Source of the DNA: Spartobacteria bacterium
GTDB lineage: Bacteria; Verrucomicrobiota; Verrucomicrobiia; Chthoniobacterales; UBA6821
NCBI GenBank assembly: GCA_947482345.1
Contig: CANKJN010000003.1
Span: 1,922 to 65,921, forward strand
Direction of reading: 5' to 3'
DNA: 64,000 bases
The notes under the pieces are model-generated. The model was not told the origin of the DNA. It was given only the letters and a program-made list of their open reading frames with translations, and did not search any database. Shown one piece after another: positions 996 through 36,168 of the stretch. Made by a program: the position numbers and the translations under genes. Position 1 is the first letter of the stretch; each line of letters starts with the position of its first letter.

Positions 996-3286
996 GGGAG
1001 ATCCCGATCCTGAAGCAACGCTTTCCCTTCGCGGGACTGCTGTTGGCCGCCATGGCGGGCATCCTGCTCTCCTCGTGGTTGGGTGCGGGGTGGCCCTTGG
1101 TGATCGCCTTGGTGCTGCTTTCACTTCCCCTGGTGATCTTCCGTAGGCGAGGCGGTCTCTGCTGGGCTCTGGTGCTATCCCTCTTCTCTCTCCTGCAACT
1201 CTGGAACTGGCAGGAATCCCCCGCAAGGAAGCTGGCCGTGTGGCTTGATGAGCATCCGGGGGAGTTTCACGTCGAGGGGATTGTCTCGGGGGAACCGAAG
1301 GTCTCCTCCCCGGGAAGCGTCACCTTTCCGATGCGGCTCGGGTCTCTCGTTCCAATCGGGACGAACGAGTCTTCGGAGCAGGCAGGGAAACCGGTCACCA
1401 TTCCCGTCGAGGTCCAGGTGAAATGGTCCGGAGTGATGCCGCGATACGGGGACATGGTCGGCTTTCAGGCCATTCCGTCCCGTCCGGCGCTTCCGCGCAA
1501 TCCCGGCGCGATGGATTACCGGCGATGGCTGGAGCGGCACGGCATCCATACGCAGTTCCGAATCGATCCATCCGAACCGGGGGCGATCCTCTCTTCCGGA
1601 CATGGGAATCCCCTGATTGCCTGGGCGATCTCGTCACGTCAGCGGATGGAGGCGATCCTCGCCGTGGACATGGGGGATTCCGCCGAGGTGCTCAGCGCCA
1701 TCAAGGGAATCACGCTCGGTGTCACGGAGAACTCTCCGGAGGGATTCACGGACGACTTCCGCTTCACCGGAACGATGCATCTCTTCTCGGTCTCGGGACT
1801 CCATGTCGGCATGCTGGCCGTGATCATCTGGTTCGTGTTGAAGGCGGCCCGCATTCCCAGGGGTTGGGCCGTGGCGCTGACCATTCCCGTACTCTTCTTC
1901 TACGTCGCGGTGACGGGACTCAAGTCGGGGAGTGTCAGGAGCGCAACCATGGCCTCGATCATGCTCGTCGGGCTTGTCCTCCACAGGAGGTCCCCGATGA
2001 TCAACACGCTGGCCGCATCGGCCTTCCTGCAGCTTGCGATCGATCCGAACATCCTCTTCTCCGCCGGGTGGCAATTCTCCTACACGGTGGTGTTCGCCAT
2101 TCTGGTGGCTGCGGGGCCGATTGAGCGATGGATCGCCTCAAGGCATGCTCCCGATCCCTTCATCCCCCCGAAGCTGCTGACCCGGCGGGAGCGCCTTGGA
2201 TTTGACACCTGGAATCACCTTGCCGGCCTTGCAGCCGTCTCGGCCGCCGCATGGATCGGATCGCTGGTGCCGACGATCGCCTACTTCCATCTCGTCTCGC
2301 TCTCAGCCTTCGGGGCCAACCTCCTTGCCGTTCCGCTTGCCTTCGGTGTCCTTTCCCTCGGGATGCTCTCCCTTCTCGGCGGCTCCGTCTCGCTCTGGGT
2401 GGCGGGTGCCTTCAACAATGCCAACTGGCTGGTCACCAAGCTTCTGCTCCTTGTGGTCCAGGTGAGTGCCATGATGCCAGGAGGTCACTGGTTTGTTGGT
2501 CCCCCTGGGAAGCCCTTTCCCGTGATGACGATTCTCGACCTGCGGGGAGCCTCCTGCGCGGTGATCCGGAGTGGCGGTGACTTTGCCATGATCGATGCCG
2601 GGCGCCGTCGTGACGCCATCTCCACGATCCTTCCCTTTCTCGAATCAATCGGAGCCAACTCCGTTCGGAGCGCCCTGATCACGAAGTCCGATGCCGCGCA
2701 TCTCGGGGGACTTGCGGAGATCATGCGTGAGATTCCCGTGAAAGGGACGGCTCTGCCTCCGGGAGACGGACGATCCCCCGTGGCCAAAAAGTTCCAGGCA
2801 GACGGGAGGAAAGTGCGTCGGGTGCAGGCGGGGGAAGAGTTGGCATTGTCCCCTGGCGTGACCGCCTCGATCCTCGCCGCCGCTCCCGGGAAGGATCGTG
2901 ACTCCCTGATTACCAGGGTGACGATGGGGGAAGTGAGGATCCTCATCCTTCCCCGGCTTTTCGGAGGAATCTCCGAACTGGTGATGAAGCTTCCCGATCA
3001 GGAACTCCATGCCGATGTACTGGTTCTTCCGTTGGGCGGTTCGGAGATGTCGGCAACTTTGGGTGTGATCCGCAAGGTCTCTCCGCGTGTCGTGGTCTCG
3101 ACCGTCGATGCCCTGAACCGTAACGGGAAACCAAGCGGTGAATGGAAGGGTGTGCTTCGTGAGGAGGGGATCACGCTCCTCCGCCAGGATGAGACGGGGG
3201 CGGTGATTCTGGAGGCCGATCCGAAAGCTCCCAGGGCAGTTCCCTTTCTAGGGGAACCGCTGATTAAATCCCATGAAGGCCGCTGA
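992..3286 (+). CDS. comEC: ComEC/Rec2 DNA internalisation competence protein (DUF4131 + ComEC core + metallo-beta-lactamase-like C-terminus)
   Basis: Polytopic membrane core with the motif FRFTGTMHLFSVSGLHVG and a C-terminal beta-lactamase-like domain. A GTG at 992 overlaps the upstream stop (GTGA); an alternative ATG lies at 1052. The last 12 codons and the stop lie inside the IS terminus at 3248-3290. Confidence 0.85.
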   Translation: MREIPILKQRFPFAGLLLAAMAGILLSSWLGAGWPLVIALVLLSLPLVIFRRRGGLCWALVLSLFSLLQLWNWQESPARKLAVWLDEHPGEFHVEGIVSGEPKVSSPGSVTFPMRLGSLVPIGTNESSEQAGKPVTIPVEVQVKWSGVMPRYGDMVGFQAIPSRPALPRNPGAMDYRRWLERHGIHTQFRIDPSEPGAILSSGHGNPLIAWAISSRQRMEAILAVDMGDSAEVLSAIKGITLGVTENSPEGFTDDFRFTGTMHLFSVSGLHVGMLAVIIWFVLKAARIPRGWAVALTIPVLFFYVAVTGLKSGSVRSATMASIMLVGLVLHRRSPMINTLAASAFLQLAIDPNILFSAGWQFSYTVVFAILVAAGPIERWIASRHAPDPFIPPKLLTRRERLGFDTWNHLAGLAAVSAAAWIGSLVPTIAYFHLVSLSAFGANLLAVPLAFGVLSLGMLSLLGGSVSLWVAGAFNNANWLVTKLLLLVVQVSAMMPGGHWFVGPPGKPFPVMTILDLRGASCAVIRSGGDFAMIDAGRRRDAISTILPFLESIGANSVRSALITKSDAAHLGGLAEIMREIPVKGTALPPGDGRSPVAKKFQADGRKVRRVQAGEELALSPGVTASILAAAPGKDRDSLITRVTMGEVRILILPRLFGGISELVMKLPDQELHADVLVLPLGGSEMSATLGVIRKVSPRVVVSTVDALNRNGKPSGEWKGVLREEGITLLRQDETGAVILEADPKAPRAVPFLGEPLIKSHEGR

Positions 3287-3750
3287 AGAGCAATTGTTTA
3301 GGGTCTTATGTAGTTGAGAGAGGGTACTGGCGGAGGTGTTTGAGTAGGATGGGGTAGATTTTACGATGTCTGTGGTTCCAACGCCACTCGCATTCTTTGA
3401 GATGGATGAGGAACTTTTCCTTACGGATGCTACGGAGTTTTAGGAGGCGGTGTTTGGCGAAGCTCCAGAAGGATTCGATGCCAATAACGTGATTCTTACC
3501 CCGAGCGAACTGTTTTTCATGATGGTGAACTCGATGATGCTGGTAACCATTGGTTACCAGCCCGTCATAAGCCTTCCATCAATCCGTATAGACATTACTG
3601 CTTGAGAGAACGTGTCCCTTGAGGATCGGCATCAGCTCTTGCTTGGAGCAATTCTTCACCACACTGACGAAGACCCGATCGCCGCGTTTATGGAGCCCCA
3701 AGAAAGGGATCTTACCCCCGGCACCACGGCCTCGCTTGCCTCGTACTCTG
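3248..3750 (-). mobile_element. 5'-truncated IS1595-family (ISXO2-like) element remnant with one intact terminus
   Basis: The terminus CTAGGGGAACCGCTGATTAAATCCCATGAAGGCCGCTGAAGAGCA lies at 3248-3290. It is followed by the transposase C-terminal half on the minus strand. Homology stops abruptly near 3750, next to the HlyD stop. Confidence 0.7.
3306..3750 (-). pseudogene. IS1595-family DDE transposase, C-terminal half only, with an in-frame TGA
   Basis: Manual minus-strand translation gives RGKRGRGAGGKIPFLGLHKRGDRVFVSVV...NVYTD*WKAYDGL...HVIGIESFWSFAKHRLLKLRSIRKEKFLIHLKECEWRWNHR. The stop replaces the expected residue in the YTDxWKAY motif. The N-terminal third is missing. Confidence 0.75.
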
Positions 3751-3758
3751 CATTAAAG

Positions 3759-4736
3759 CTATTTTCTTGAGATTTCGGATAGGCTTGCGCTGTGCGCTGA
3801 GCGCGGATGTCCTTCCACAAGAAGATCCATCTGCTGGCCCACAAAAAGCGTTTTTGTCGGTGCGACCACTTGATAAATCACCTGAAGAACCCGCGTGTCC
3901 ACCCTCTCGCGCGGATCCCCTGTGAGCGAGCGTTTCGGGACCACCAATGGCTCAAAACGGACAAACTGAAGATCGAACCGATCGTTCGCATTGCCGCGAG
4001 GAGTGGCCGTGGCTCGGGCACCGGCAGCAAGTCGCGGTATGTCAAACTCATCCACATCTCCCCGGACGTGCAGGGGCTCGGTGGAACCGAGCAGAAGACG
4101 CGGTTCTCCGGAGCCACTCGCGTCAAGGAATTCACCTGGCCGCATCCGAGTTTGAAGAATAGTCCCATTCTTTGGGGCGCGGATCGTGCTGCGATCAATC
4201 TCCGTTTCGACCGAAGCGACCTCTGCACGGTTGAGGCGCACCGCGGCCAAGGTCGAATCTAACTCCGCCTCCAGTTTCTCCAACTCTGAAACCCTGTCAT
4301 CACGGTCTTGCGACGCAATGGTTCCGGCATTTGCCAACCGACACGAAGTCAGGGCGCGACGGCGTGCCTGCTCCAGAAGCTTTTGAATCACTGTCACCTG
4401 TTTTTCAGTCTGTTCGACCCGTGCCAATGCCACCGAGCGCTGCGCATCCAAATGCCGGTGATCGAGAACAAAAAGCGCCTGATTGGCCTCAACTCTTTCT
4501 CCGGCTGCGACCAGCACGGAGGCAACGACTCCTGGAAAGGGGCTCCCAATGGCAATGCTTTCTGAGTTTGGCTCGATAATTCCGACAGCCGCAACGGTGT
4601 GCTCGAACAGGGATTGCGGAGGTGGAACAGCTGGCTCCGTTAACTCTTGTTTAGGCTGCGTGCTCAGGATGGCCACGGCAGAAATCCCGACCGATGCAAG
4701 ACCTACTAAGGAAAGAATAATGGTAGTGGGCTTCAT
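3759..4736 (-). CDS. HlyD/DevB-family membrane fusion (periplasmic adaptor) protein
   Basis: N-terminal TM anchor, coiled-coil middle and beta-barrel-like C-terminus. 4-nt overlap with the upstream ABC ATPase gene. Confidence 0.75.
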   Translation of the reverse strand: MKPTTIILSLVGLASVGISAVAILSTQPKQELTEPAVPPPQSLFEHTVAAVGIIEPNSESIAIGSPFPGVVASVLVAAGERVEANQALFVLDHRHLDAQRSVALARVEQTEKQVTVIQKLLEQARRRALTSCRLANAGTIASQDRDDRVSELEKLEAELDSTLAAVRLNRAEVASVETEIDRSTIRAPKNGTILQTRMRPGEFLDASGSGEPRLLLGSTEPLHVRGDVDEFDIPRLAAGARATATPRGNANDRFDLQFVRFEPLVVPKRSLTGDPRERVDTRVLQVIYQVVAPTKTLFVGQQMDLLVEGHPRSAHSASLSEISRK

Positions 4737-5491
4737 GGTTGATTCAGTGATTCGATCTTTTTGGACGAGCGGATGAGACCGTCTTCCATCTCGATAATCC
4801 GATGCGCAAAGTGAAAAACCCGACTGTCATGCGTGACCACGATCACCGCGCGATCAGGATGAATTGCAGAAGTGGCGAGACGTTCCATGACCGATTCTCC
4901 GCTGCGGTGATCTAAGGCCGCTGTCGGCTCGTCGCAGATAATCAAGCGTGGCTCATGCACAAGAGCTCGCGCAAGAGCGACCCTTTGCTGCTGACCTCCC
5001 GAGAGAAGTTGAGGAACGAGCTCTGTGCGGTGCGCCAGCCCCAGATGGGTCAAGACCTCGCGCGCCTTGCCGATCGCGTTTTCGCGCCCCCAACCCGCCG
5101 CAACCAAAGGCACGGCGACATTCTCTGCGGCGGTGAAGGCCGGGAGCAGGTTATACTGCTGGAAAACAAACCCCAAGTACTGGCGTCGAAAAAGAATCCG
5201 CTCTCGCGGGGCAAGGAGGCTGAGCCTTTCTCCAAAGAGGCTCACCGTTCCAGAATCAGGCGCGAGCAGGCCGGCGATTATAGATATCAGGGTGGTTTTT
5301 CCGCAGCCTGATGGCCCAACAAGGAATGTCATTTCGCCCAAAGCAGCCATGAAATTCACCCCACGGAGAACATCGACTTTGGCCTCTCCCTCGCCAAATG
5401 ATTTCCAGATCGAGGCGCACGTGACCGCGCCAGTTAAGTCAGGAACGGAAGACATCGGCAGGCTCCAGGTTGAGGACTTTTTTGAAGGCAA
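4733..5491 (-). CDS. ABC transporter ATP-binding protein (DevA/MacB-ATPase/LolD-like)
   Basis: Walker A GPSGCGKTT, signature LSGGQQQRVALARAL and Walker B LIICDEPTAALD. The start is uncertain (5491 or 5455). Confidence 0.85.
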   Translation of the reverse strand: MPSKKSSTWSLPMSSVPDLTGAVTCASIWKSFGEGEAKVDVLRGVNFMAALGEMTFLVGPSGCGKTTLISIIAGLLAPDSGTVSLFGERLSLLAPRERILFRRQYLGFVFQQYNLLPAFTAAENVAVPLVAAGWGRENAIGKAREVLTHLGLAHRTELVPQLLSGGQQQRVALARALVHEPRLIICDEPTAALDHRSGESVMERLATSAIHPDRAVIVVTHDSRVFHFAHRIIEMEDGLIRSSKKIESLNQP

Positions 5492-6572
5492 ATCCTGCTG
5501 TGATAAGGGTGATCAACCCGATGCTTATGCAGCACAGCAGTGTAACCTGCCACGGCAGGTAGAGAGATCGAAAAAATGGCATCGTTGCCGCCGAAAAGCT
5601 GGTGCCAACGGCAAGCATCGTGCCTAGAGCAAGCCCAAGGACGACAACGATTCCAGCCATCGTGGCCACCATGACCGCCAATTGCCCGTGCGTGAATCCG
5701 AGCACTTTCAGAGTCGTGAAAGCGCGGGCATTCTCTTTGACAAACATCAGAAAAGTCTGCCCTGAAAATGCGGCACCAACGATCAGCCCGACGGTGATGG
5801 TGATGTAGAAGAGGTGTGGCACTCCCTGGTCCATGTAGAACCGGGAACTGGCCTCCTCAAACTCCTCGCGGGTCAACGCTTTCCAACCAGTCGCCGCACG
5901 AATCTCGCGCGTCACTTTCCCCCGATCCGCGTCGGCTTCGAATCGACCGACAACAAATGTTGTGCAACGGCTTTCGGCCCGATTAAGTTGGATGGCAGTG
6001 GAATGACTTACATGAATGATCGGAAATCCGGTAAAAGGAGGTGACGCGTTGCTGACTCCTTTGATTTGCAGCCATTTATCATGGATGCGAATCCTCATTC
6101 CGGGGCGAAAAGTCTCGCCGGGATACAGGAGGGCCATGCCGCCTGGATCGATAACTGCGGAATCGCGCTCGTCAAGGACCGAACTGTCGCCGATGTTCAT
6201 CCGCGGTTCCCCAACCTTGCTCTGCTCCGGCACTCCCAAGATGGTGACGCTACTCAGTTTTCCGGCTTCCGTGCGGGCGGGTGCATCTACCTTGAGCAAG
6301 GTCAAGGCCCACTTCACGCCAGGAAAACCGCGCACAATCTCAGCTGCCGTGTCTTTGAGTGGCTTAGCCTGATCAAAGCATTCGGTTGAGGAATCCATCA
6401 CCCAAAGATCGGCTTCCCGCACATCGCGAATCTGGGAGTCGGACATGGCGAGGAAACTAACAAGAAACGAGGCTTGGTTTTGCGTCAGAAATGCCGCCAT
6501 AGCAATGGCCAAGACCATCGCAAGAAACTTTGGACCATCATGACTCAACATCGTAAAGGCCATCGAAATCAT
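5439..6572 (-). CDS. ABC exporter permease, FtsX/DevC-like
   Basis: N-terminal TM, a large periplasmic domain and three C-terminal TM helices, typical of DevC/MacB-type permeases. In an operon with the ATPase and adaptor genes. Confidence 0.75.
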   Translation of the reverse strand: MISMAFTMLSHDGPKFLAMVLAIAMAAFLTQNQASFLVSFLAMSDSQIRDVREADLWVMDSSTECFDQAKPLKDTAAEIVRGFPGVKWALTLLKVDAPARTEAGKLSSVTILGVPEQSKVGEPRMNIGDSSVLDERDSAVIDPGGMALLYPGETFRPGMRIRIHDKWLQIKGVSNASPPFTGFPIIHVSHSTAIQLNRAESRCTTFVVGRFEADADRGKVTREIRAATGWKALTREEFEEASSRFYMDQGVPHLFYITITVGLIVGAAFSGQTFLMFVKENARAFTTLKVLGFTHGQLAVMVATMAGIVVVLGLALGTMLAVGTSFSAATMPFFRSLYLPWQVTLLCCISIGLITLITAGFAFKKVLNLEPADVFRS

Positions 6573-7219
6573 CGCCCTCTGTCCTCCTTGGTTTTGGCTG
6601 TTGGCTTTTTTATCGGTCCCTTGATTTTCATATTAAATGCAGTGCAGATCCATGTTTGGAAAAGCCGGGAGGACGCCCGCCAGTCCAGGCCAGGATCGCA
6701 CGCCATCCGGGATATCAGCCCGTCAATGCACGCGATCATGAAGACGGCCCCCTCGTGCGGCTTGATGGATCCGTCAATCTCGCCCCTCTCAATAGCAAAG
6801 CAGATCAGCGTTTCGATGCGCTTAGTAAGCACTGCATAGTATTTCTTAAGTACAAGAGCAATTTCGGGGTTGGTGGAGGCCTCAGCCGTGATTTGCAAGA
6901 ACATGGCGAGCTCATCTCGATTCGCGCACCCCTGCTCTGCGATCGAGCCAAGGGTGGAAATCACATCAGAGAAAGGCATCGCAGGAGGAATTTCCGCCAC
7001 CGCTGCCTCCCAGCGGGCGCGATCCAGATCAATAATGCCCTTGATGATCGCTTCTTTGGAATCGAAGTATCCGTAGAGCGCACCAACGCTGAGAGACTGG
7101 AATTCGCAGAGGTCGCGCATTGAAGTGCTGTGGAAGCCCTTTCGGGCGAAGCAGCGCATGCACCCATCGAGGATGGCGAGCTTCTGCTTTTCGTAACGTT
7201 CGGAAGTGAGCTTAGGCAT
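6569..7219 (-). CDS. TetR/AcrR-family transcriptional regulator
   Basis: N-terminal HTH FARKGFHSTSMRDLCEFQSLSVGALYGYFDSKEAII. The ATG at 7219 is preferred over the ORF-track start at 7273. 4-nt overlap with the permease start. Confidence 0.85.
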   Translation of the reverse strand: MPKLTSERYEKQKLAILDGCMRCFARKGFHSTSMRDLCEFQSLSVGALYGYFDSKEAIIKGIIDLDRARWEAAVAEIPPAMPFSDVISTLGSIAEQGCANRDELAMFLQITAEASTNPEIALVLKKYYAVLTKRIETLICFAIERGEIDGSIKPHEGAVFMIACIDGLISRMACDPGLDWRASSRLFQTWICTAFNMKIKGPIKKPTAKTKEDRGR

Positions 7220-7240
7220 GGAGATTGGTGGAATATAAAA

Positions 7241-7254
7241 AACGAATGTTCGTT
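7241..7254. promoter_or_regulatory. Candidate TetR operator palindrome AACGAA-TG-TTCGTT
   Basis: Perfect 6-2-6 inverted repeat 22-35 nt upstream of the TetR ATG. It is adjacent to a TATATT -10-like hexamer on the minus strand. Confidence 0.4.
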
Positions 7255-7443
7255 CTGTATTTTGAGAAGTCAAAGCTTTATTCTAATTTTTTCAAGATGA
7301 GATGTATTTTGCTTCATTGTGTGAATTGCAAGAAACCCCACCATCGAAACAAGCCTTGTCAAGAAGGCTAAAGAAATTGTCAACAGGACCAAATGCGCTG
7401 CCACTCTTTGCCTCTGTCAGTCAGTTTTGCTCCCCGTATTCAT

Positions 7444-7800
7444 GGGAGCCTTCCCTTTTCGGAAGGCAAATTCAGCCGCCTTGGCGCATTCCAGCGGATC
7501 GAGAAGGCCGATATTGAGCATTGGGGAAATGATCGAGTGGAACATGTCGGGCTCCCCCTCGATCATCAGGTCCTGCCAGGTGCCGAAGTGTGGGAGCCGC
7601 TCTTCCACGAAGTGCTCCATCCATTTCAGGGATTCCTCCCGTGTCACGGGAAGGGCGAAGTCCGCGGCTTTGTCGGGTGCATCCGGAAAACAGACTTCCA
7701 GGTCGGTCGCGACCTCCCGGGTGATGGGGTCCTGTTCCGGTCTTGGAAGTGCCCGTGGGCGTGGTGAACCGGCCTTCTTCGAATCGCGGAGCGTACCGTC
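7444..7800 (-). pseudogene. Internal fragment of a second photolyase/cryptochrome-like gene (paralogous to 8955-9315)
   Basis: About 357 bp align with the intact gene at 8320-9864 with scattered substitutions (protein ...SPRPRALPRPEQD.ITREVATDLE.CFPDAP...). It has no start region and no C-terminal half. Confidence 0.8.
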
Positions 7801-7965
7801 GTCTCGACCGTCGATGCTTTGAACAGGAACGGAACTCCCAGTTCTGAATGGAAGGGTGTGCTTCTTGAGGAGGGGATCACGCTCCTCCGCCAAGATGAAA
7901 CAGGGGCGGTGATTCTGGAGGCGGATCCCAAAGCTCCCAGAGCAGCCCCCGTGGCCATTCCGTTT
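7801..7965 (+). pseudogene. Duplicated, diverged comEC 3'-end fragment
   Basis: Encodes ...EWKGVLLEEGITLLRQDETGAVILEADPKAPRA..., matching the comEC C-terminus at 3093-3247. It is joined directly to the photolyase fragment on its left and to the MITE terminus on its right. Confidence 0.8.
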
Positions 7966-8288
7966 CTAGGGGAACCGCTGATTAAATCCCATGAAGGCCG
8001 CTGAAGAGCATTTGCTGATTTTTGAAGGCGCGAGCGCTGGGCGATACCCGCAGCGGTCTCGCCCGAGCGAGCAACGTCACAAAAATCGACAAATGGCTTC
8101 AGCCCTACGGGTTGCGGAGATCCAAGCCAAAGGCCACAAAGCCTTTGGCTTCGTGGCGTGGCACGGGGACCAACTGTGTTGGCTTGGCGCTTACAGCCCA
8201 CTGCGGGGATGCTCGCGCCAAGCCGCCTTGCCCGCGGCCCATTCTTCCCGCAACGGCCTCTATGCGATTTAATCAGCGATTCCCAACA
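7966..8288 (+). mobile_element. MITE-like non-autonomous element sharing termini with the IS1595-type remnant (copy M1)
   Basis: Left end CTAGGGGAACCGCTGATTAAATC, right end GATTTAATCAGCGATTCCC (inverted). The first ~45 bp are identical to the IS end at 3248-3290. There is no credible ORF. A second copy lies at 35364-35645 in inverted orientation. Confidence 0.75.
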
Positions 8289-8319
8289 TCGCGAATCAAC
8301 CGGTTCCGCTTGATCGGGT

Positions 8320-9864
8320 TCACCGAAGCGATTCCAAAAAAGCCTTTGATTGAGTGACGATGGCGGCGCGTTCCTCCGCCGGTCGCTTCATCCACGAACG
8401 CACCATCATGGCCGTGCGCGGGTTATTAGCGAAGCGCCCGCGATGGGTTTCGTAGAAGTTCCAGTAGAGGAGGTTGAAGGGGCAGGCTCCCGGCCCTGTT
8501 TTGATATCCGGACTGTGGGGACATCCCCCGCAGTAGTTGCTCATCTTGTGGATGTATGATCCGCCGGCTGCATACGGCTTGGTTGCCATGAATCCGCCGT
8601 CGGCATGGAGGGCCATTCCGAGGAGGTTGGCGGCCATCACCCAGTCATGGGCGTCGATATACATCTCGTTGAACCAACGGAGCGCCTCACCGGGCCTGAC
8701 TCCCGCGAGCAGCAGGAAATTGCCGAGGATCATCAGTCTCTGGATGTGGTGATTGAAGCCACCCTTCAGGACTTCCCCCAAGGTCTGACGGAGGCAGTTC
8801 ATGTCCGTCTCGCCGTCATAGAAGAAGGAGGGGAGGGGGCGTTCGGCTTCGAGACCATTGACCCCCACGTACTCGGGCATCTTCAGCCAGTAGACCCCGT
8901 TGACGAATTCGCGCCATCCGATGATCTGCCGGATGAATCCCTCCACGGCATGCAGGGGAGCCTTCCCTTTTCGGAAGGCAGATTCAGCCGCCTTGGCGCA
9001 TTCCAGCGGATCGAGAAGGCCGATGTTGAGCATCGGGGAAATGATCGAGTGGAACATGTCGGGCTCTCCCTCGACCATCAGGTCCTGCCAGGTGCCGAAG
9101 TGTGGGAGCCGCTCTTCCACGAAGTGCTCCATCCATTTCAGGGAGTCCTCCCGTGTGACGGGAAGGGCGAAGTCCGCAGCTTTGCCGGGTGCATCCGGAA
9201 AACAGATTTCCAGGTCGGTCGCGACCTCCCGGGTGATGGCGTCCTGTTCCGGTCTGGGAAGTGCCCGTGGGCGGGGTGATCCCGCCTTCTTCCAATCACG
9301 GAGCGTGGCCCTGTTCTCGACATCGTAGTTCCAGTCGCCACCGACCGGCTTCCCGTCGCTCTCCATGAGTAATCCCGTCCGCCTCCGCATCTCGCGGTAG
9401 AAATTCTCCATCAGCAGACGCTTCTTTCCCTGCGCCAGTTCGGCGAAATCCTCCCGGGAGCAGAGGAATTGGGTGTCTGGAACGATGCGGAGCGGGTATT
9501 CCAATTTCCCGCCAAGGGAGTCCAAGGCGAGGCTCTCATCGTGGTTGTTAGGCCGGGTGACGAGAATCTCCGAGGGCTTCCAGGCCGTGCAGTGACGGGC
9601 CAGGGCGGAGCGCATGTCGGGAGCGTCGTTGATCCGGTGGTAGTCGACCTCCCATCCCTCGGCCTCCCGTTCCGCGGCGTAGTGTCTCATCGCCGAGAGA
9701 AGGAGCATCAGGCGATGCCGATGGTAGGGGAGCTTTCCGAAGGTCTGCCGGGATTCGATGAAGAGCAGGCAATCCGTCCCCTTCCTTGCCGAGAGGAGGG
9801 ATGCGTTGGTGACCGAGAGTTGGTCGGCGAGGATCCAGACTGTCCGCCGAGTCTCCGCACTCAC
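8320..9864 (-). CDS. FeS-BCP/CryPro-type photolyase-cryptochrome family protein ((6-4) photolyase-like)
   Basis: COG3046-like N-terminus. The C-terminal cysteine pattern C...CGGC-x12-C (YCGGCPHSPDIKTGPGAC) matches the spacing of the four [4Fe-4S] ligands known for PhrB/CryB. GTG start overlaps the HAD stop. Confidence 0.8.
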   Translation of the reverse strand: MSAETRRTVWILADQLSVTNASLLSARKGTDCLLFIESRQTFGKLPYHRHRLMLLLSAMRHYAAEREAEGWEVDYHRINDAPDMRSALARHCTAWKPSEILVTRPNNHDESLALDSLGGKLEYPLRIVPDTQFLCSREDFAELAQGKKRLLMENFYREMRRRTGLLMESDGKPVGGDWNYDVENRATLRDWKKAGSPRPRALPRPEQDAITREVATDLEICFPDAPGKAADFALPVTREDSLKWMEHFVEERLPHFGTWQDLMVEGEPDMFHSIISPMLNIGLLDPLECAKAAESAFRKGKAPLHAVEGFIRQIIGWREFVNGVYWLKMPEYVGVNGLEAERPLPSFFYDGETDMNCLRQTLGEVLKGGFNHHIQRLMILGNFLLLAGVRPGEALRWFNEMYIDAHDWVMAANLLGMALHADGGFMATKPYAAGGSYIHKMSNYCGGCPHSPDIKTGPGACPFNLLYWNFYETHRGRFANNPRTAMMVRSWMKRPAEERAAIVTQSKAFLESLR

Positions 9865-20782: not shown

Positions 20783-22429
<1,647 letters not shown>

Positions 22430-22466
22430 GTCCGACTCCCACGCTTCTCTAAGAAGTTACAGCAGC

Positions 22467-22500
22467 AGCCGGGTCAGAAATGACCCGGCTGTTTCTGTTT
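22467..22500 (+). terminator. Rho-independent terminator of groESL
   Basis: Stem AGCCGGGTCA, loop GAAA, stem TGACCCGGCT, followed by GTTTCTGTTT. Confidence 0.75.
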
Positions 22501-22581
22501 ATGAGGTATAGCGGGGGCTTGGAGAGCGGTTTAGACTGTAGGCTGTTAGGCTGTAGGATTTGCCAGTAAGTCTACAAAAGG

Positions 22582-23155: not shown

Positions 23156-24024
23156 GTTCGGCGACACTCTTCAATTCCCTCGTTGACGAGGCACTCAAGT
23201 CGCGTCCCGAGTTAGCACTCCTGCGTCCCGTCGTGGAGAAGGAGTTGCTCCATCACGACATTCTTAGGGAGATGAGTCAGGAAGGACTGCTCTCCAGCCT
23301 CACCTTCATCGGCGGCACTTGTCTGAGAGCCTGCTATGGCTCTACGCGTCTCAGCGAGGATCTCGATTTTACCGGAGGGAACGATTTCAAGCGCTCCGAT
23401 CTCATGGAACTGGGGATGGTGCTCAGCGAAACTATCGGCACCCGCTACGGACTGAAAGTCAGCGTGAGCGATCCCGTCAGGACGGAAGGGAAGGTCAGCA
23501 CCTGGAAGATGAGTGTAGAGACCTGTCCTGGTCGCAAGGATCTTCCTGCACAGCGCATCCATCTCGATATCTGCGCCATCCCCAGTCACGACCCCCGCCC
23601 CATGATGTTGCGTACCCTCTATGGCGTCGATATGGGGACCTCCGGTCTCATCCTTCAAGCCCAGAGTAGGGAGGAGATCCTTGCAGACAAGGTGATAGCC
23701 TTGGCATTCCGCGAGGGGCGAATCAAGAACCGTGACCTCTGGGACATCGTCTGGCTCCAACAGCAGGGAGTGGAACTCCCCGTTCAACTGATCCCGCTCA
23801 AGATCCACGACCACCGCCGCTCCAAGGACGAGTTTCGATCACTCCTGCTGGAGAGGGTGGGGGAGTTGAGAAAGAGCGAGGCGCTTAGGAAAGACTTCAT
23901 CAAGGAGATGAGACGATTCCTTCCCGTGGCCACGGCGGCCCAGACCGTGGAACAGGAACCTTACTGGCGGTATTTGACTCAAGTTATTGGGGAGGAAGCG
24001 GAGAAGGCGCTGGCTATTCTCTAA
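23152..24024 (+). CDS. AbiEii/AbiGii-family nucleotidyltransferase toxin (DUF1814)
   Basis: 290 aa with the pol-beta NTase motif [22 protein letters not shown]. Confidence 0.8.
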
Positions 24025-24046
24025 GGAACCGCGGTTCCCTAACCCA

Positions 24047-24202
24047 ACCAAGGTCACCCGCAGCGCCCTGCAGAACGCCGCTTCCATCAGCGGACTCCTG
24101 CTCACCACCGAGGTCACCATCGCGGACGCTCCTGAGAAGGAGAAGGCCCCTGCGATGCCACCAGGTGGCGGAATGGGTGGAATGGGCGGAATGGACTACT
24201 AA
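24047..24202 (+). pseudogene. Duplicated groEL 3'-end fragment
   Basis: Encodes [51 protein letters not shown], nearly identical to the groEL C-terminus. The copy continues through a second terminator. Confidence 0.85.
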
Positions 24203-24233
24203 GTCCAAGCCTAGCCTAAAAAGCTCAACAGAG

Positions 24234-24267
24234 AGCCGGGTCAGCAATGACCCGGCTCTTTCTGTTT
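24234..24267 (+). terminator. Second copy of the groEL terminator
   Basis: Stem AGCCGGGTCA, loop GCAA, stem TGACCCGGCT, then CTTTCTGTTT. Confidence 0.7.
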
Positions 24268-24445: not shown

Positions 24446-24784
24446 TTAAACCCCTTGTTGTTTAAGGTTCCAATCAGTGAATCCAGAGATAACAGTCATA
24501 TCCTCAAAAAACTGATTTTCTGTGATTCCATCCAAAATTATCATTCTTCTTAATTCATGGAAAATTTTGTGGAATCTTGTGCTTTCATTAAGGCTGTTCC
24601 ATCCAGGAATATTTACACCATATTTATTTAAATAACCTTTGGATAGTTTAGGTATGTCGTTGATGAAATTCTCACATGCGAATATCTGAATAATTCCTCC
24701 ACCTTTCATTCCGCAAGAGTTTATGTGAGTTGCTTCAGACCAGCAAATCAGCGCAATTTTAGAATCAATAGAGTTTTTTAGCAT
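24446..24784 (-). CDS. Small hypothetical protein (112 aa) in the most AT-rich DNA of the window
   Basis: The ORF lies 76 bp downstream of the helicase gene and is co-directional with it. I recognise no motif. The coding call rests on length, context and shared atypical composition. Confidence 0.5.
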   Translation of the reverse strand: MLKNSIDSKIALICWSEATHINSCGMKGGGIIQIFACENFINDIPKLSKGYLNKYGVNIPGWNSLNESTRFHKIFHELRRMIILDGITENQFFEDMTVISGFTDWNLKQQGV

Positions 24785-24860
24785 TAAATCCGGAGTTTTA
24801 TTTCAATTGCGTTAGGTTTTGATATTTAAGTAAGGCCTAACTTATATTCGCGCAACGTTT

Positions 24861-27800: not shown

Positions 27801-27875
27801 CAGATCCGCAAACGACTTCACCCCGGCAAACAGCCCGGACTTGGCAATCTCTCGTGATTTCGTGTGCAGTGGCAT
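24861..27875 (-). CDS. Mrr-like PD-(D/E)xK nuclease domain + SF2 (DEAH) helicase + five C-terminal helicase-associated (HA) repeats
   Basis: The N-terminus has GDAFE...DYGIDGV...YQVKF. Helicase motifs are ACGTGKT (I), FDEAHKTAG (II), TATP (III), LTEGVDVP (V) and QATGRAMR (VI). Five ~65-aa repeats follow, of the form W..(R/H)(Y/F).EL..FK...GH.NVP......LG.W...QR. The ATG at 27875 is preferred over the TTG at 27902. Confidence 0.85.
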   Translation of the reverse strand: MPLHTKSREIAKSGLFAGVKSFADLEKRITAIPENKGKGDAFEVFAEAYLATQRKHDAKEVWPLNATPLDILSKLGLGGMDYGIDGVLQTLLGDLSAYQVKFRTGRDPMTWRELSTFMGLADSPHIRSRILITNCDELPSVINDRQGFFCIRGSDLDRMGASDFAAIEAWLAEATVRTPRKTPLPHQEEALAAIVPTLQKESRATAIMACGTGKTLVTLWTAEQLGAQKILVLLPSLALLRQTLHEWLKETSLKSLAYLCVCSDPTVKGDADAISTAQSDLDFEVSTNPETVRSFLDAPFKGTKIVFSTYQSATVVGAAMHPDESFDLGIFDEAHKTAGRDGSKLSYALKDANILIAKRLFVTATPRHHNPRKKDRSGDAELVYSMDNPEVFGTRCYTLSFSQAAKREIICGYKVVISVITSEMVTNELISRGQVLIDGDAIQARQVANQIALRDAAYKYGVRRIFTFHNTVASASSFVADTSEGVRTHLPEFCTFHVSGAMPTAHRERIMRDFRASDSGIMSNARCLTEGVDVPAVDMVAFLSPRRSLVDIVQATGRAMRKSPGKKLGYVLVPLYVEVESGESLDEAVARADFDEIWDVLQTMQEQDEVLADTIRLSAINSVLEEGVVDRPFGELVEVIGPHVHLNDIESAVAAQCIDGLVSKWETHYAELLQFKAKYGHTNVPKGCAEYPMLGSWVENQRSAKTRGLLYAERQNLLDHAGFRWSEQQCRWEERYLELLRFKEKTGHTNASPTDPENQSLGIWIMYQRKSFKEGTLDPEKVSKLNDAGFVWDAHDKRWWDRYQELLDFKKLYGHCNVPSQYPENPILARWVGTQRSKKSRGLLNQDYERLLSDICFEWVSPRIDSEIGNEIWNKRFEELRDFKKLHRHCDVPARFKDNPSLGAWLTDQRSKKRKGTLSLIHEEKLTFLGVSWGKEGTQNTWEDRFRDILDFRAEYGHCNVPRHFKANIGLANWATKQRQKKRKGILDADKVARLTEIGFVWDK

Positions 27876-28029
27876 AGGGGATGTCGGAGTGTAGGACAAC
27901 AAGCATCCCCCTCCAAGCCTTCAAAGCTCCTAAAGGGGGATGAGTATCCATGGACTGTAGGGACATTTCACCATTGGCGCTTTTTTTCCGCACAATGAAG
28001 GCTAGATTGATACAAGTCACTACGGAGCC

Positions 28030-33709: not shown

Positions 33710-33910
33710 AATCAGCCGTAACAAATCAGCGACTGGCGAACACATAGCCGTGGGAACGGCTTGGGTAGACTGAACGAAAGTTCAGCCCGCAAGGGTGAGC
33801 CGAGCAGGAGCGAGCGAATCAAAGCTGATAGGACTGCAAAGCAGCCCCGATAGGGGCGAGTGGCTTGGGAAAGCCCGAGTTCAAATGCGTAGCAACGGCC
33901 GGGTCAGTCA

Positions 33911-34235
33911 AATCAGGAAAGGAGAAAGAAATCCCTGAGGGCCGGCTGATTTCTAGCGCAGAAGTAGGGGAAAACTCACAGGGATGAAGGGGATAAAGGG
34001 GATGGGAGAAATCCCCTGTCCCCGATCGTATCCAGCATATTACAGTGACACTGGGGGCACGGATCAGCCCAACTGTTCCAAAATCCTTTTCATCCCCTTC
34101 ATCCCTGTGAAATGTCAGGGATTCTCTGACTCCTTTTTTCCGGATCAAACCTGCAGCGTCGCTGGTACTTGAAGCATCCAAACGGAGGTTTGGCAGGGAA
34201 GTCCTTTCCTAAGCCGATCGCCTTGAACTGTTGCC
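33911..34235. repeat. Direct repeat copy 1 (decayed MidA-like gene 3' end plus its downstream region)
   Basis: Aligns with 35800-36168. The 34150-34235 part is a frameshifted copy of the methyltransferase C-terminus, with a 14-nt deletion. Confidence 0.8.
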
Positions 34236-34291
34236 TTACGCCGCGACGTCCCGGCACTCAGCCACTCTTTAAGAACCCATCCGCAGAAAGA

Positions 34292-34441
34292 CTACTCTGC
34301 GGCGGAAGCCTCTTCCTGCGGTTCGGATGAGGAAGATCCGGCAGCTTTGCTTGCGGCCTTGGCTTTTGCTTTTTCTTCCTTCTTGCGCTTCTTCTCCATT
34401 TCTTTCCTGCGCTTCTCGAACCCGTAATTGATTTTGACCAT
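34292..34441 (-). CDS. Small lysine-rich protein (49 aa), below the ORF-track cutoff
   Basis: Manual translation gives MVKINYGFEKRRKEMEKKRKKEEKAKAKAASKAAGSSSSEPQEEASAAE*. A hairpin CCGCAGA...TCTGCGG overlaps the stop. It replaces the overlapping spurious 76-aa ORF. Confidence 0.5.
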   Translation of the reverse strand: MVKINYGFEKRRKEMEKKRKKEEKAKAKAASKAAGSSSSEPQEEASAAE

Positions 34442-34477
34442 GGTCTTCGGTGGTTGGTGGTTGTGGCTGGTTGGTGG

Positions 34478-34813
34478 TCAAACGTCGCCGTTCAACCATT
34501 TTGTAAATTGCTCATCAAGGCGCTCCTTCATGGCCCCGATGTCGTGGGACATGTCGGTAAACTGACCCCACTTCAAGATGTCCTTGGCCTTTCCGGAACC
34601 CTCGATTTCGAGGATAAAATCCTCCACGAGGATACCCTGCGAGACGTGGGTGGAGCGGAGGTGTTCCTTGCAGAGATCAGCGGTCTGATTCTGGCGATTT
34701 TTCGTGCCGAGTCCCATGTCAGAGAGGGAAAAGCGCTCCGCAGGAGTCGCTGGAGTGACGGCAGGATGAGTGAAAGGACTGATGCAATGTCCTGTGAATC
34801 TACCCCCCTGCAT
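34478..34813 (-). CDS. Hypothetical protein (start uncertain: 34813 or 34717)
   Basis: 111-aa ORF with plausible codon usage, upstream of the 49-aa ORF and co-directional with it. No recognisable motif. Confidence 0.45.
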   Translation of the reverse strand: MQGGRFTGHCISPFTHPAVTPATPAERFSLSDMGLGTKNRQNQTADLCKEHLRSTHVSQGILVEDFILEIEGSGKAKDILKWGQFTDMSHDIGAMKERLDEQFTKWLNGDV

Positions 34814-35049
34814 TCGGTTGAGCGAATGAATTCCGCTGGAAAGCCAAGGATCCGTTGGAGTCCCCTCATTACGCCGGGGTCCAAAGGTTTACCTTGCTAA
34901 TGTTTGGAAATGCCCCACATTCAAACTGTTCGATTTTTAATGATTTGTTGCGTGGTGAATTGCCAATTGAGTTTTTCAATGGTGGTTTGAAACCCGGTTC
35001 TCGGGAACGGCTCTGATTAGCGGATTTCGTATCAACCACACACACCAAC

Positions 35050-35367
35050 ATGAAACTCTACGTAGGCAATCTGACCTTTGACACCACCGACCAGGATCTC
35101 CGTGATCTCTTCACCCAGTACGGCAAGCCGACCGAGGTCGCCCTGGTCACCGACCATGAAACCGGCCGTTCCCGCGGATTCGGCTTTGTCACCATGGGCA
35201 ACGCTGAGGAAGGCAACGCAGCCATCGCGGCACTTGAGGGCAAGGACTTCCAGGGTCGCAACCTGACCGTCAACGAGGCCCGTCCCCGAGAGGATCGTCC
35301 TCCAGGAAACAGGGGCGGAGGCCGCTCCTTCGGTGGCGACCGCGATCGCGGTCCTCGCCGTTATTAG
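35050..35367 (+). CDS. RRM-type RNA-binding protein with a Gly/Arg-rich tail
   Basis: RNP2 LYVGNL, RNP1 RGFGFVTM and a C-terminal RGG-like tail. The stop TAG (35365-35367) lies in the MITE terminus. Confidence 0.9.
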
Positions 35368-35645
35368 GGAAGGGCTGATTAAATCGCATAGAGGCCGTTG
35401 CGGGAAGAACTGGCCGCGGGCAAGGCGGCTTGGCGCGAGCATCCCCGCAGCGGGCTGTAAGTGCCAAGCCAACACAGCCCCCGGCCTGTTATCTCCGCAA
35501 CCCGCAGGGCTGAATCCATTTGTCGATTTTTGTGGCGTTGCTCGCTCGGGCGAGACCGCTGCGGGTATCGCCCAGCACTCGCGCCTTCAAAAATCAGCAA
35601 ATGCTCTTCAGCGGCCTTCATGGGATTAAATCAGCACTTCCCTAG
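35364..35645 (-). mobile_element. MITE-like element, copy M2 (inverted relative to M1)
   Basis: Reverse complement of 7966-8288, except for a ~45-bp internal indel. Termini are TTAGGGAAGGGCTGATTAAATC and GATTAAATCAGCACTTCCCTAG. Confidence 0.8.
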
Positions 35646-35662
35646 TCATCTCTCCACAAAAA

Positions 35663-35697
35663 AGCGGGACCTCATTACAGGGGTCCCGCTTTTTTTG
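35663..35697. terminator. Bidirectional Rho-independent terminator
   Basis: An A-run, stem AGCGGGACC, loop, stem GGTCCCGCT, then a T-run (TTTTTTT). Confidence 0.75.
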
Positions 35698-35799
35698 TGC
35701 CTTGAAAGGATTGGCCTTTTGGCCCCACTAGCAACGGCCTTTATGCGATTACCCCAAAAATTGCATTAGAGGCGGGAAGTACAAAGAATTTTATCAGGA

Positions 35800-36168
35800 A
35801 ATCAGGAAAGGATAAAAGAACCCCTGAGGGCCGGCTGTTTTCTAACGCAGAAGTAGCGAAAAACTCACAGGGATCCGTAATGGATGCGAAGCAACGGCCG
35901 GGCCAGCCAAGGGGATAAAGGGGATGGGAGAAATCCCCTGTCCCCGATCGTATCCAGCATATTGCAGTGCCACTGGGGGCACGGATCAGCTCAGCTGTTC
36001 CAAAATCCTTTTCATCCCCTTCATCCCTGTGAAATTGCAGGGATTCTCTGACTTCTTTTTCCGAATCAAACCTGCAGCGCCTCGACTCCCGGGCGCTGGT
36101 ACTTGAAGCATCCCAGCGGAGGCTCGGCGGCGAAGTCCTTTCCGAAGGCGATCGCCTTGAACTGTCGC
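35800..36168. repeat. Direct repeat copy 2 (intact MidA-like 3' end plus downstream region)
   Basis: Aligns with 33911-34235. It is continuous with the intact gene at 36066-37253. Confidence 0.8.

Follow-up and report, generated by a model that had tools for sequence, protein, structure and literature searches.

The window analysed here is a 64-kb stretch of DNA from a freshwater member of the Verrucomicrobiota. BLAST within this window reveals three loci, at comEC, groEL and a gene for a MidA-like methyltransferase, at which an intact gene is followed by cargo and then by a second copy of the tail of this gene (200–370 bp). The features of these loci are summarized in Table 1. The two tails of each pair are 80–88% identical, with E values of 1e-67 to 1e-101. 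The initial annotation had reported these pairs and the recurrence of the layout; all of the pairs are present, with its coordinates good to approximately 10 nt, and a fourth case is found at sufD in the sister strain L003. When the whole window is compared with itself, few duplications other than gene tails are detected, namely a fragment of the DPRP gene, a 315-bp MITE-like element and three dispersed repeats of approximately 90 nt each. Thus, gene-tail duplicates dominate the duplications in the window. The cargo consists of toxin-antitoxin or Abi modules, an efflux operon or a monooxygenase, none of which is related to the host gene, and also contains ordinary chromosomal DNA, namely the DPRP fragment and an RRM gene of the host. 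Relatives with an empty site are found for all three window loci.

Table 1. Features of the three loci, in order of position in the window
Locus	Feature	Position	Strand	Remarks
comEC	comEC	992..3286	+	764 aa as called in public assemblies; Pfam Competence and DUF4131
comEC	Tail copy 1, attached to gene	3085..3296	+	
comEC	IS1595-family DDE transposase relic	3297..3758	-	PF12762, E 1.7e-21, profile positions 37-153 of 153
comEC	Cargo of the unit	3759..7273	-	HlyD-like adaptor, ABC ATPase, FtsX permease, TetR regulator (Pfam)
comEC	DPRP internal-fragment copy	7438..7808	-	Matches 8950-9321
comEC	Joint of DPRP fragment and tail copy 2	7791..7808		Microhomology TCTCGAC
comEC	Tail copy 2, detached	7791..8014	+	
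comEC	MITE-like element, copy A	7970..8284		315 bp; TIR GGGAAYCGCTGATTAAATC
comEC	Stranded ancestral comEC C-terminal coding sequence	8285..8353	+	NIANQPVPLDRVHRSDSKKAFD*
comEC	DPRP gene	8320-9864	-	Convergent; overlapped by the stranded comEC end
groEL	groEL, intact	20789..22429	+	546 aa; Pfam Cpn60
groEL	Tail copy 1 (to 22429), T1 terminator and leader	22262..22557	+	
groEL	Cargo of the unit, AbiEi/AbiEii	22619..24024	+	Pfam; PADLOC E 4e-60 and 1e-103
groEL	Tail copy 2 and T2 terminator	24035..24267	+	
groEL	112-aa ORF and 1,013-aa Mrr-nuclease/helicase/HA-repeat protein	24446..27902	-	
MidA-like	Tail copy 2, detached	33910..34235	-	Adjoins the sufD stop at 33709
MidA-like	Cargo of the unit	34236..35798		MITE-like copy B, RRM_1 gene, two small ORFs
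MidA-like	RRM_1 RNA-binding protein gene	35050-35367	+	
MidA-like	MITE-like element, copy B	35367-35642		Inverted relative to copy A
MidA-like	Tail copy 1	35799..36169	-	Last 104 nt of the gene and 267 nt downstream
MidA-like	MidA-like methyltransferase gene, intact	36066..37253	-	395 aa; Pfam PF02636

The three cases are not equivalent, in that the comEC case includes in addition an IS relic, a MITE-like element and a second gene fragment. The comEC copies are 84% identical over 224 nt (E 2e-67), with 13 synonymous and 5 non-synonymous differences and a four-codon indel; copy 2 is in frame and uninterrupted up to the stop codon, and the longest identical run, located near the 3' end, is 48 nt. 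In both comEC ends, the final 45 nt (3252–3296 in copy 1) belong to the left end of the MITE-like element and correspond to its first 45 nt, and the last 11 codons of comEC are sequence of this element rather than ancestral comEC sequence. In relatives, the C-terminus of ComEC reads ...PFLQPNQPVPLDRVHRSDSKKAFD. Copy A of the element is inserted at a TA within the comEC 3' end and is missing from the empty site of L144, where comEC overlaps DPRP by 34 nt. The IS1595 relic, which directly follows copy 1, is truncated at the N-terminus and contains an internal stop codon; both this relic and the MITE-like element at this locus were overlooked in the initial annotation. The cargo is a predicted MacAB-type efflux operon. 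The DPRP fragment, in which the reading frame is still open, belongs physically to the unit and is joined to copy 2 at a 7-nt sequence, TCTCGAC, common to DPRP (9314–9320) and comEC (3094–3100). This is the only clear microhomology joint. The fragment is more similar to the DPRP allele of L144 (95.2%) than to that of the resident gene (93.5%).

The comEC unit is also represented by L116, a k=119 contig from another sample, the first and last 119 nt of which are identical. This terminal overlap falls in unique cargo sequence, and the resulting unit of 4,718 bp is exactly as long as the spacing between comEC copies 1 and 2. At its junction, the sequence upstream of copy 2 is joined to that downstream of copy 1 through one mosaic comEC fragment; IS1595 is still a relic in this contig. 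Because the longest identity between the two comEC copies is 48 nt, a cycle at k=119 is not an artefact of repeat collapse. L116 may represent either a free circle or a tandem array of the comEC unit. The microhomology joint and this circular contig directly support, at comEC, the earlier proposal that circular DNA integrates through a short homologous anchor. Circular forms of the AbiE and MidA units are not found, the 30-nt terminal overlap of L128 being a graph artefact of k=31. This artefact, the origin of every sequence in metagenomes and the frequent ending of contigs at these repeats speak for a layout that itself arose from a chimeric contig, in which two co-existing strains are stitched together at shared sequence. 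However, the junctions between cargo and copy 2 are unique and are recovered at 99–100% identity in independent samples by different assemblers, including k=31 unitigs (L126–L129, L123 and L133), and the diverged relatives L003, L109 and L110 carry structural variants of the layout. Recurrence of the junctions across assemblers and unitigs indicates that the structure is not an assembly artefact, and we regard this explanation as extremely improbable.

The GroEL protein is identical on 22 contigs. The groEL copies (22262/22269–22500 and 24035/24042–24267) are 88% identical over 233 nt (E 1e-76), with the initial 75 nt being identical, and differ by 7 synonymous and 2 non-synonymous changes; copy 2 is in frame to the stop codon. 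Copy 1 is followed by the T1 terminator (hairpin at 22468–22489 and T-run to 22500) and then by a conserved leader of approximately 40 nt, the motif of which occurs once in the window. The block of copy 1, T1 and leader always accompanies variable cargo, and the T1-type loci all diverge at a single point past the leader. The cargo in the window is an abortive-infection toxin-antitoxin pair, and only 0–17 nt separate the AbiEii stop codon from copy 2. In the empty sites of L107 and L115, groEL is followed by the T2 terminator and the helicase neighbourhood without AbiE, and in L107, L113 and L115 a full groEL gene runs straight into copy-2-type sequence and DNA similar to positions 24203–24385 of the window. 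The helicase further downstream in the window is the native neighbour of groEL in L115; the block that contains it includes a 112-aa ORF partly located in low-GC DNA and is deleted as a whole in L003, L004 and L110. Comparison with these relatives shows at sequence level that the groEL copy 2 represents the native end of the gene, displaced but still adjoining the native DNA downstream.

The copy-2-type coding end is present on the groEL genes of L107, L109 and L110, and groEL ends are mosaic, with the copy-1 coding end combined with T2 in L105 and L111 and the copy-2 coding end combined with T1 in L109 and L110. These mosaics indicate that recombination occurs within the repeat. The groEL slot has five alternative occupants: AbiE, an antitoxin-PIN pair, a DUF6036 pair, a toxin-antitoxin pair alongside UmuDC, and a 243-aa protein with Nramp. 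The left boundary of the detached copy lies within approximately 4 nt for AbiE in the window, the diverged AbiE of L109 and the cargo of L110, which has the AbiE promoter region in common with the AbiE locus; in L005 it lies 30 nt away. At the groEL joint, no more than 4 nt are shared (ACCC). This slot resembles the product of a single old event with subsequent exchange of cargo, and not of repeated fresh integrations.

The MidA copies are 80% identical over 372 nt including indels (E 1e-101). Copy 2 contains a 13-nt frameshifting deletion, and its coding differences are 0 synonymous and 6 non-synonymous. In the empty sites of L142 and L143, MidA converges directly on sufD with 194 nt between them, and this synteny shows that the detached copy sits at the native position beside sufD. 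In the fourth case, the sufD copies of L003 differ by 11 synonymous and 2 non-synonymous changes.

In every case, sufD of L003 included, the intact gene runs without a break into copy 1. The lengths of the repeats vary across the four cases (206, 224, 232 and approximately 370 nt), and no boundary motif is common to comEC, groEL, MidA and sufD, so that the four cases cannot be tied to a single type of site. As alleles of housekeeping proteins, the two tails of a pair are nearly identical, with 2–6 amino acid differences. The excess of synonymous differences at groEL, comEC and sufD indicates that the copies diverged as working alleles. The initial annotation had described the second copies as decayed, diverged duplicates. 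This does not hold for groEL and comEC, where the copy is open in frame with mostly synonymous differences; among the three window loci, only the MidA copy 2 looks decayed. The detached copies are better described as displaced resident ends, as indicated by sequence for groEL and by synteny for MidA.

The view that no tyrosine or serine recombinase is present holds for the window and for every gene-annotated related locus, as examined by Pfam scans and precomputed Pfam assignments, although the truncated IS1595 DDE transposase gene had been missed. This relic is the sole transposition-related gene in these scans. All cargo ORFs and the window were searched by Pfam, and some metagenome loci by ORF listing alone; in the metagenome loci, no integrase is recognised among the ORFs that follow groEL. 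Among the loci fetched, the five occupants of the groEL slot contain neither an integrase nor a conjugation gene. An IS-bounded transposon or IS26-like translocatable unit is rejected, since the only IS element is the single IS1595 relic. An integron cassette array is likewise rejected: no integrase is found, Rfam gives no match in the window and the leader motif is not repeated.

The absence of an integrase from the DNA examined favours gene gain through recombination over a classical mobile element. Nevertheless, a surrogate gene end with the native end displaced to the far side, as is found for groEL by comparison with L107, L113 and L115 and for MidA by synteny in L142 and L143, is the classic signature of site-specific elements that enter gene 3' ends. 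These units could be site-specific elements that resemble genomic islands, IMEs or PICIs without their own integrase, either decayed CIME-like remnants or small non-autonomous cassettes mobilised in trans by a recombinase from elsewhere in the genome; the latter would correspond to the unrecognised site-specific system proposed in the initial annotation. Staphylococcal PICIs enter the groEL 3' end with an 18-bp att overlap (PMC8125051), and CIMEs retain attL and attR without an integrase (PMC5704250). The identical first 75 nt of the groEL repeat resemble an att core, the boundary of the detached copy is constant within 4 nt for three cargo types, the left breakpoint past the T1 leader is fixed and the comEC unit has a unit-length circle. 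In contrast, no integrase or excisionase is found in the window or the gene-annotated related loci, a core search of viral contigs gives no match, and the gap between AbiEii and copy 2 leaves no room for an attP arm outside the coding sequence. The displaced boundary in L005, the four target genes without a common motif and the failure to see a detached copy at other Verrucomicrobiota groEL loci also argue against such elements. In addition, the "attP arm" of the comEC unit derives from a neighbouring chromosomal gene, a fragment of which is joined at microhomology; this is unexpected for a dedicated element. The CIME reading in particular is not supported by any related integrase-bearing element at the groEL site among the occupants compared. 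Site-specific elements are thus a serious but unlikely explanation.

The units could also have arisen in place, by microhomology-mediated unequal exchange (for example, between comEC 3094 and DPRP 9314) that generates a tandem duplication. One copy would have been remodelled later, when IS1595 and the efflux operon entered it and neighbouring DNA was deleted, and homologous recombination would have replaced the functional copy with an allele of another lineage. Such a duplication would create exactly the junction observed between DPRP and comEC, L116 is compatible with tandem amplification of the unit, an IS relic lies at the cargo border, and the allelic mosaics indicate frequent homologous replacement in the population. 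However, the cargo of groEL and MidA and the T1 terminator are absent from the empty-site relatives and unrelated to native downstream DNA, and duplication in place therefore cannot supply them. The greater similarity of the DPRP fragment to the allele of another strain than to the resident one also argues against it, and it requires several additional steps per locus. We consider this explanation quite improbable.

We favour, with a probability of roughly 0.5, the explanation that the units are products of homology-anchored, recombinase-independent insertion, by which the resident 3' end is displaced. The incoming DNA would consist of the end of a conserved gene and the DNA downstream of it in the donor. 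This donor is probably a diverged relative, as suggested by the tail divergence of 6–16%, dominated by synonymous changes, and by the DPRP fragment being nearer to the allele of another strain. The incoming DNA would pair with the resident gene across the homologous stretch, and an illegitimate joint at a short microhomology, within the resident tail or immediately upstream of it, would attach the non-homologous far end of the incoming DNA, as in homology-facilitated illegitimate recombination (HFIR). Alternatively, the fragment would be circularised by a microhomology joint and then inserted by one homologous crossover, which gives the same topology; HFIR of linear DNA accounts for the layout equally well as the circle. 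The outcome would be an intact gene with an imported surrogate tail, followed by cargo and then by the displaced tail of the resident gene, without its 5' part and without its promoter. A working gene would be left only if the homology segment covers the 3' end of the gene, so that selection would make the surviving events look specific for 3' ends. Once formed, a unit would be flanked by two stretches homologous to the single gene end of any relative and could spread by ordinary homologous recombination; its conserved flanks would allow cargo swaps and its direct repeats would allow loop-out or amplification. In this scheme, the pathway of recombination, the way in which DNA entered and the contribution of selection are inferred. 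Natural transformation as the entry route is suggested only by the comEC gene, the C-terminus of which is rewritten by the MITE-like element.

The fixed groEL breakpoints count against displacement of this kind, since a site-specific system would give them. They are equally explained by the shared ancestry of one old unit combined with cargo swaps. That a microhomology joint is clear at comEC alone, and that HFIR is rare in the laboratory, also weighs against this explanation.

In Campbell-type insertion-duplication, a single crossover via a 3'-terminal gene fragment leaves the gene intact, followed by the insert and by a copy truncated at its 5' end, and the insert can loop out as a unit-length circle. 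This reaction is a standard genetic tool and its outcome an engineered one; to our knowledge, recurrent natural acquisition by it is not established. HFIR, in which one homologous anchor and one microhomology joint insert foreign DNA without a recombinase, is known from natural transformation of Acinetobacter, Streptococcus and Pseudomonas (PMC3240628, PMC5361080). An HFIR joint inside the anchor region of the recipient gives exactly the present tail duplication. HFIR is known from laboratory selections, in which it is rare (PMC5361080, PMC3240628), whereas it is inferred here from natural population structure, and the circular or tandem form of one unit is not predicted by HFIR alone.

The closest precedent for the layout may be C-terminal displacement at Rhs, CDI and T6SS effector-immunity loci (Jackson et al. 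2009, as cited in PMC5361080; Kirchberger et al. 2017, PMC5361080). At these loci, as in the window, an imported 3' end arrives with new downstream genes and the old 3' end or ends are orphaned downstream without a recombinase. For Rhs and T6SS loci, this displacement has been attributed, as a proposal, to HFIR, and the arrays spread by ordinary homologous recombination (PMC5361080). The displaced ends at those loci are distinct toxin domains kept with immunity genes under strong diversifying selection. In contrast, the genes examined here are housekeeping genes (groEL, comEC, midA and sufD) with near-synonymous tails and gene-unrelated cargo, and polymorphic-toxin displacement proper is rejected, because the tails contain no distinct toxin domains. 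PICIs (PMC8125051) and CIMEs (PMC5704250) resemble the present units in using the 3' end of a conserved gene (groEL included), in keeping this gene intact by element sequence, and in having flanking direct repeats; they have circular forms, to which L116 may correspond, and integrase-less remnants of them occur. Unlike them, the present units are accompanied by no integrase at the gene-annotated related loci examined, their repeats are 200–370 bp of allelic gene sequence rather than a short att core, and one "arm", in the comEC unit, comes from a chromosomal gene nearby.

Homology-anchored displacement would thus extend the known pattern of C-terminal displacement to housekeeping genes. A more speculative and rather doubtful possibility is that this lineage hosts recombinase-free "homology cassettes" of 1.8–4.7 kb, for which the copy of the 3' end of a conserved gene is the sole attachment device. 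Such cassettes would enter by homologous pairing and a microhomology joint, exit through their flanking repeats as unit-length circles, a route suggested by L116, and then enter relatives again. If this is the case, they would represent a general, integrase-independent route by which defence and resistance mini-islands are built behind housekeeping genes.

Whole-window self-comparison recovers the three gene-tail repeat pairs reported by the initial annotation, at the ends of comEC, groEL and the MidA-like gene, essentially at the coordinates claimed and far above chance. The positions are summarized in the table, in which copy 1 is the tail attached to the gene and copy 2 is the detached tail beyond the cargo. 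The initial 75 nt of the groEL repeat are identical between the copies. Because this unbiased comparison detects few other duplications, the duplications of the window are mostly gene-tail duplicates. A tRNA scan detects neither tRNA nor tmRNA genes in the window and an Rfam scan of it gives no match to a known RNA, indicating that the insertions lack a tRNA or tmRNA target. Profile scans of the window genes likewise bear out the absence of tyrosine and serine recombinases. The remaining genes encode core functions (DnaK, GroES, Suf, MutL, the glycine cleavage system, KaiC/KaiB, Opp, trigger factor and ClpP/ClpX). The gene for double-domain KaiC (E 5e-108) adjoins that for a KaiB-domain protein at 50033-52622 in this Verrucomicrobiota host, outside cyanobacteria. 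Dispersed intergenic repeats of approximately 50-100 nt may be REP-like elements.

Positions of repeat pairs, element relics, cargo and slot contents (window coordinates unless a related locus, L-number, is named)
Feature	Position	Strand	Remarks
comEC tail pair	3085-3296 vs 7791-8014		84% over 224 nt, E 2e-67
groEL tail pair	22269-22500 vs 24042-24267		88% over 233 nt, E 1e-76
MidA tail pair	35799-36169 vs 33910-34235	minus	80% over 372 nt with indels, E 1e-101
sufD tail pair (fourth case)	L003:19057-21071, also L006		206 nt, 94.7%; 11 synonymous vs 2 non-synonymous differences
DPRP internal fragment, 372 nt	8950-9321, copied at 7438-7808		self-comparison
MITE-like element, 315 nt	7970-8284; 35367-35642 (inverted copy); 3252-3296 (first 45 nt only)		self-comparison (first two)
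MITE-like element, unrelated places	L002:18765-19040; L003:2691-3040
IS1595-family DDE transposase pseudogene	3297-3758	minus	truncated, internal stop; PF12762, E 1.7e-21
Dispersed repeats, three			about 90 nt each; self-comparison
Dispersed intergenic repeats	62840-62933, 39440-39533, 29372-29460		74-89% alike
Intergenic repeats of the same sort	27822-27919, 29472-29616		matched against L002 and L004
comEC unit cargo			HlyD/ABC/FtsX/TetR efflux operon
groEL unit cargo			AbiEi/AbiEii
MidA unit cargo			RRM RNA-binding protein gene and small ORFs
groEL slot, AbiE	window, L003, L004, L109
groEL slot, small-ORF/PIN pair	L005
groEL slot, DUF6036 nucleotidyltransferase pair	L110
groEL slot, UmuDC and toxin-antitoxin pair	L112
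groEL slot, 243-aa protein and Nramp	L002

Related contigs were drawn from public metagenome assemblies (ENA, JGI, NCBI and Logan). The groEL loci picked first, by the exact GroEL sequence, were biased toward the copy-1-type end, and native and imported ends were instead distinguished by a search of metagenomes for a 26-nt core of groEL DNA, which returned 11 loci. At the related loci L107, L113 and L115, a complete groEL is joined straight to the copy-2-type coding end or to T2, the terminator of that end, and is followed by the sequence found 3' of copy 2 in the window. L115 continues into a homologue of the helicase gene of the window without the AbiEi/AbiEii pair (AbiE). T1, the terminator after the copy-1-type end, always precedes a conserved leader of approximately 40 nt and then variable cargo. 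These results identify groEL copy 2 as the resident end, now displaced. The insert comprises a surrogate tail with T1, followed by the leader and AbiE (1,773 bp, ~22262 to 24034), and at least five different contents of this slot are known from the window and related loci. A detached groEL tail is found at none of the other Verrucomicrobiota groEL loci of the genome collection, among the matches listed, and the groEL core gives no match in a scan of viral contigs. Among the matches listed from the genome collection, which are mostly from distant phyla, the best is 90% identical to GroEL, and Chthoniobacterales MAGs reach 87%; this similarity assigns the window to a freshwater Verrucomicrobiota.

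The groEL boundaries nearly coincide and the leader breakpoint is fixed, both of which favor the main rival explanation, a site-specific system acting in trans, as do the precedents of PICIs, which occur at groEL (PMC8125051), and CIMEs (PMC5704250). Nevertheless, no integrase is present at these sites in the relatives examined, and there is no space for an attP arm. The leader motif occurs once in the window and was rejected as a dispersed repeat or attC-like site. The contig L128 was rejected as an AbiE circle: it was built at k=31, and its 30-nt overlap falls inside the 75 nt that the two groEL copies share exactly, such that it represents a graph artefact. A perfect 14-nt palindrome, GGAACCGCGGTTCC, is located at 24025-24041, where it separates the stop codon of AbiEii from the beginning of groEL copy 2, and is missing from the diverged AbiE unit of L109.

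A second breakpoint hotspot is located inside the detached groEL tail, just past ...CTGCTCACCACC (window position 22336), in the second groEL copy of L109 (about 2058-2414 of the reoriented locus) and in L005:12464-12560. In both loci, the leader-like sequence ATTAGGCTGAAGWCTGTT... comes after this breakpoint, which hints at nested or serial insertions. The block at 24182-27934 contains the groEL copy 2 tail, a 112-aa ORF and a gene for a 1,013-aa protein with Mrr-nuclease, helicase and five HA-repeat regions; the GC content is 0.45 over roughly 24000-26000. In L003 and L004, the sequence passes from 24181 to 27935, and the deletion in L110 is similar, with endpoints that differ slightly. Loss of this block is a recurrent deletion polymorphism, at the cost of a restriction-like defence gene.

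The MidA locus follows the same logic as groEL. In L142 and L143 (76% MidA identity), MidA converges directly on sufD-sufB-sufC-fur, and in the window it is the detached tail that adjoins sufD, so that by synteny this tail is in the native position. The C-termini of MidA in relatives do not decide which tail is native. At the sufD 3' end of the sister strains L003 and L006, the gene tail is repeated beyond an inserted FAD_binding_3 FAD-monooxygenase gene; the window lacks this insertion. No boundary motif common to the comEC, groEL, MidA and sufD cases was found, which is a further point against a site-specific system acting in trans.

The second copies had been described as decayed. This description fits only that of MidA, which looks degraded: the MidA copies show no synonymous and six non-synonymous differences, and a 13-nt frameshifting deletion. 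Copy 2 of groEL is in frame through its stop codon and differs from copy 1 at seven synonymous and two non-synonymous sites. Copy 2 of comEC is also in frame through the stop, with 13 synonymous and five non-synonymous differences and an in-frame 4-codon indel. These mainly synonymous, in-frame differences indicate that the groEL and comEC tails belonged to working genes when they diverged.

The layout described for comEC holds, but an IS1595 relic, a MITE-like element and a microhomology joint had been overlooked. In L144, a relative with 96% identity, comEC and the convergent DPRP gene overlap by 34 nt with nothing in between. In the window, comEC copy 1 is followed immediately by the IS1595 relic and then by the efflux operon; the relic interrupts several assemblies, of which L120 ends at window position 3355 and L121 at 3441. 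Beyond copy 2, the 315-nt 'spacer' proves to be a MITE-like element in the IS630/Tc1-mariner style, which has terminal inverted repeats of approximately 19 nt (GGGAAYCGCTGATTAAATC) and TA flanks and is dispersed in the lineage. Its insertion in the comEC 3' end has replaced the ancestral C-terminal residues with GEPLIKSHEGR and a stop, and the ancestral C-terminus, NIANQPVPLDRVHRSDSKKAFD and a stop, is still encoded at 8285-8353. A '45-nt third comEC end' at 35598-35642 was rejected as a gene-tail duplicate, because it is the end of a MITE-like element. A ComEC start at the first ATG of the ORF was also rejected; that protein is not on record and the called gene starts at 992. At least four different C-termini follow ...ILEADP in close relatives (proteins P0124-P0131, 92-96% identical): the ancestral ...RVHRSDSKKAFD, the MITE-derived ...GEPLIKSHEGR, ...RNPGITSRLPGGPEMKIKPANLEKPGPR and a fourth in P0002. 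This variety marks the comEC 3' end as an insertion hotspot and makes the function of the 'intact' comEC uncertain. The DPRP fragment meets comEC copy 2 at TCTCGAC, a 7-nt microhomology shared by the two parent genes, and the junction illegitimately joins two chromosomal points. The 'arm' of the comEC unit is a chromosomal fragment, which also argues against a site-specific system. Only for comEC is duplication in place, with later remodelling, a plausible origin. Assembly artefact is ruled out by independent assemblies.

The comEC unit is known in its integrated state and also as either a closed circle or a tandem array. The contig L116, from another sample, ERZ27292214, and assembled at k=119, is 4,837 nt long with identical first and last 119 nt, and the unit is therefore 4,718 bp, which is exactly the spacing of comEC copies 1 and 2. 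The terminal overlap is within unique cargo sequence (FtsX). The path contains one mosaic comEC fragment between the sequence upstream of copy 2 (DPRP fragment) and that downstream of copy 1 (IS relic). Because the longest identical stretch between the copies is 48 nt, this cycle cannot result from repeat collapse at k=119.

The data fit a homology-anchored, recombinase-independent insertion. Donor DNA would pair with the resident locus through the conserved gene, and its far end would be joined illegitimately within or just before the resident tail (homology-facilitated illegitimate recombination, HFIR). Integration, by one crossover, of a fragment circularised at a microhomology joint would be equivalent. 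Either route would yield an intact gene with an imported tail, the cargo and the displaced resident tail. A homology segment without the gene 3' end would give a broken gene and the event would be lost, probably the reason why the survivors seem 3'-end-specific. The unit would then have two arms homologous to the single gene end of any relative, and ordinary homologous recombination could spread it and exchange its cargo. Consistent with this, the groEL ends are mosaics, in which all four combinations of two coding types and two terminator types occur, and L110 shares the promoter region of the AbiE unit while its genes are different. Acquisition through a homologous anchor, as proposed by the initial annotation, is the best-supported explanation but falls short of proof.

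The observation itself, cargo between an intact gene and a second copy of its tail, is solid. Among described patterns, the closest is C-terminal displacement, a proposed product of HFIR at Rhs, CDI and T6SS loci (PMC5361080). The topology is the same, whereas here housekeeping genes are hit and the cargo is unrelated to them. Many bacterial hotspots of defence and accessory genes lack mobile-element genes, and how their cargo enters is an open question. The present loci offer a concrete, checkable trace, in which the imported block carries its own copy of the end of the neighboring core gene and the resident end is left as a scar. To our knowledge, C-terminal displacement has so far been described for polymorphic toxin loci, and it would thereby extend to essential housekeeping genes such as groEL, if this route is general. 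Displaced, 5'-truncated gene tails could then mark recombinase-independent acquisitions across a genome. Since the two tails of a unit are alleles of different lineages, they would also permit dating of each event and identification of its donor.
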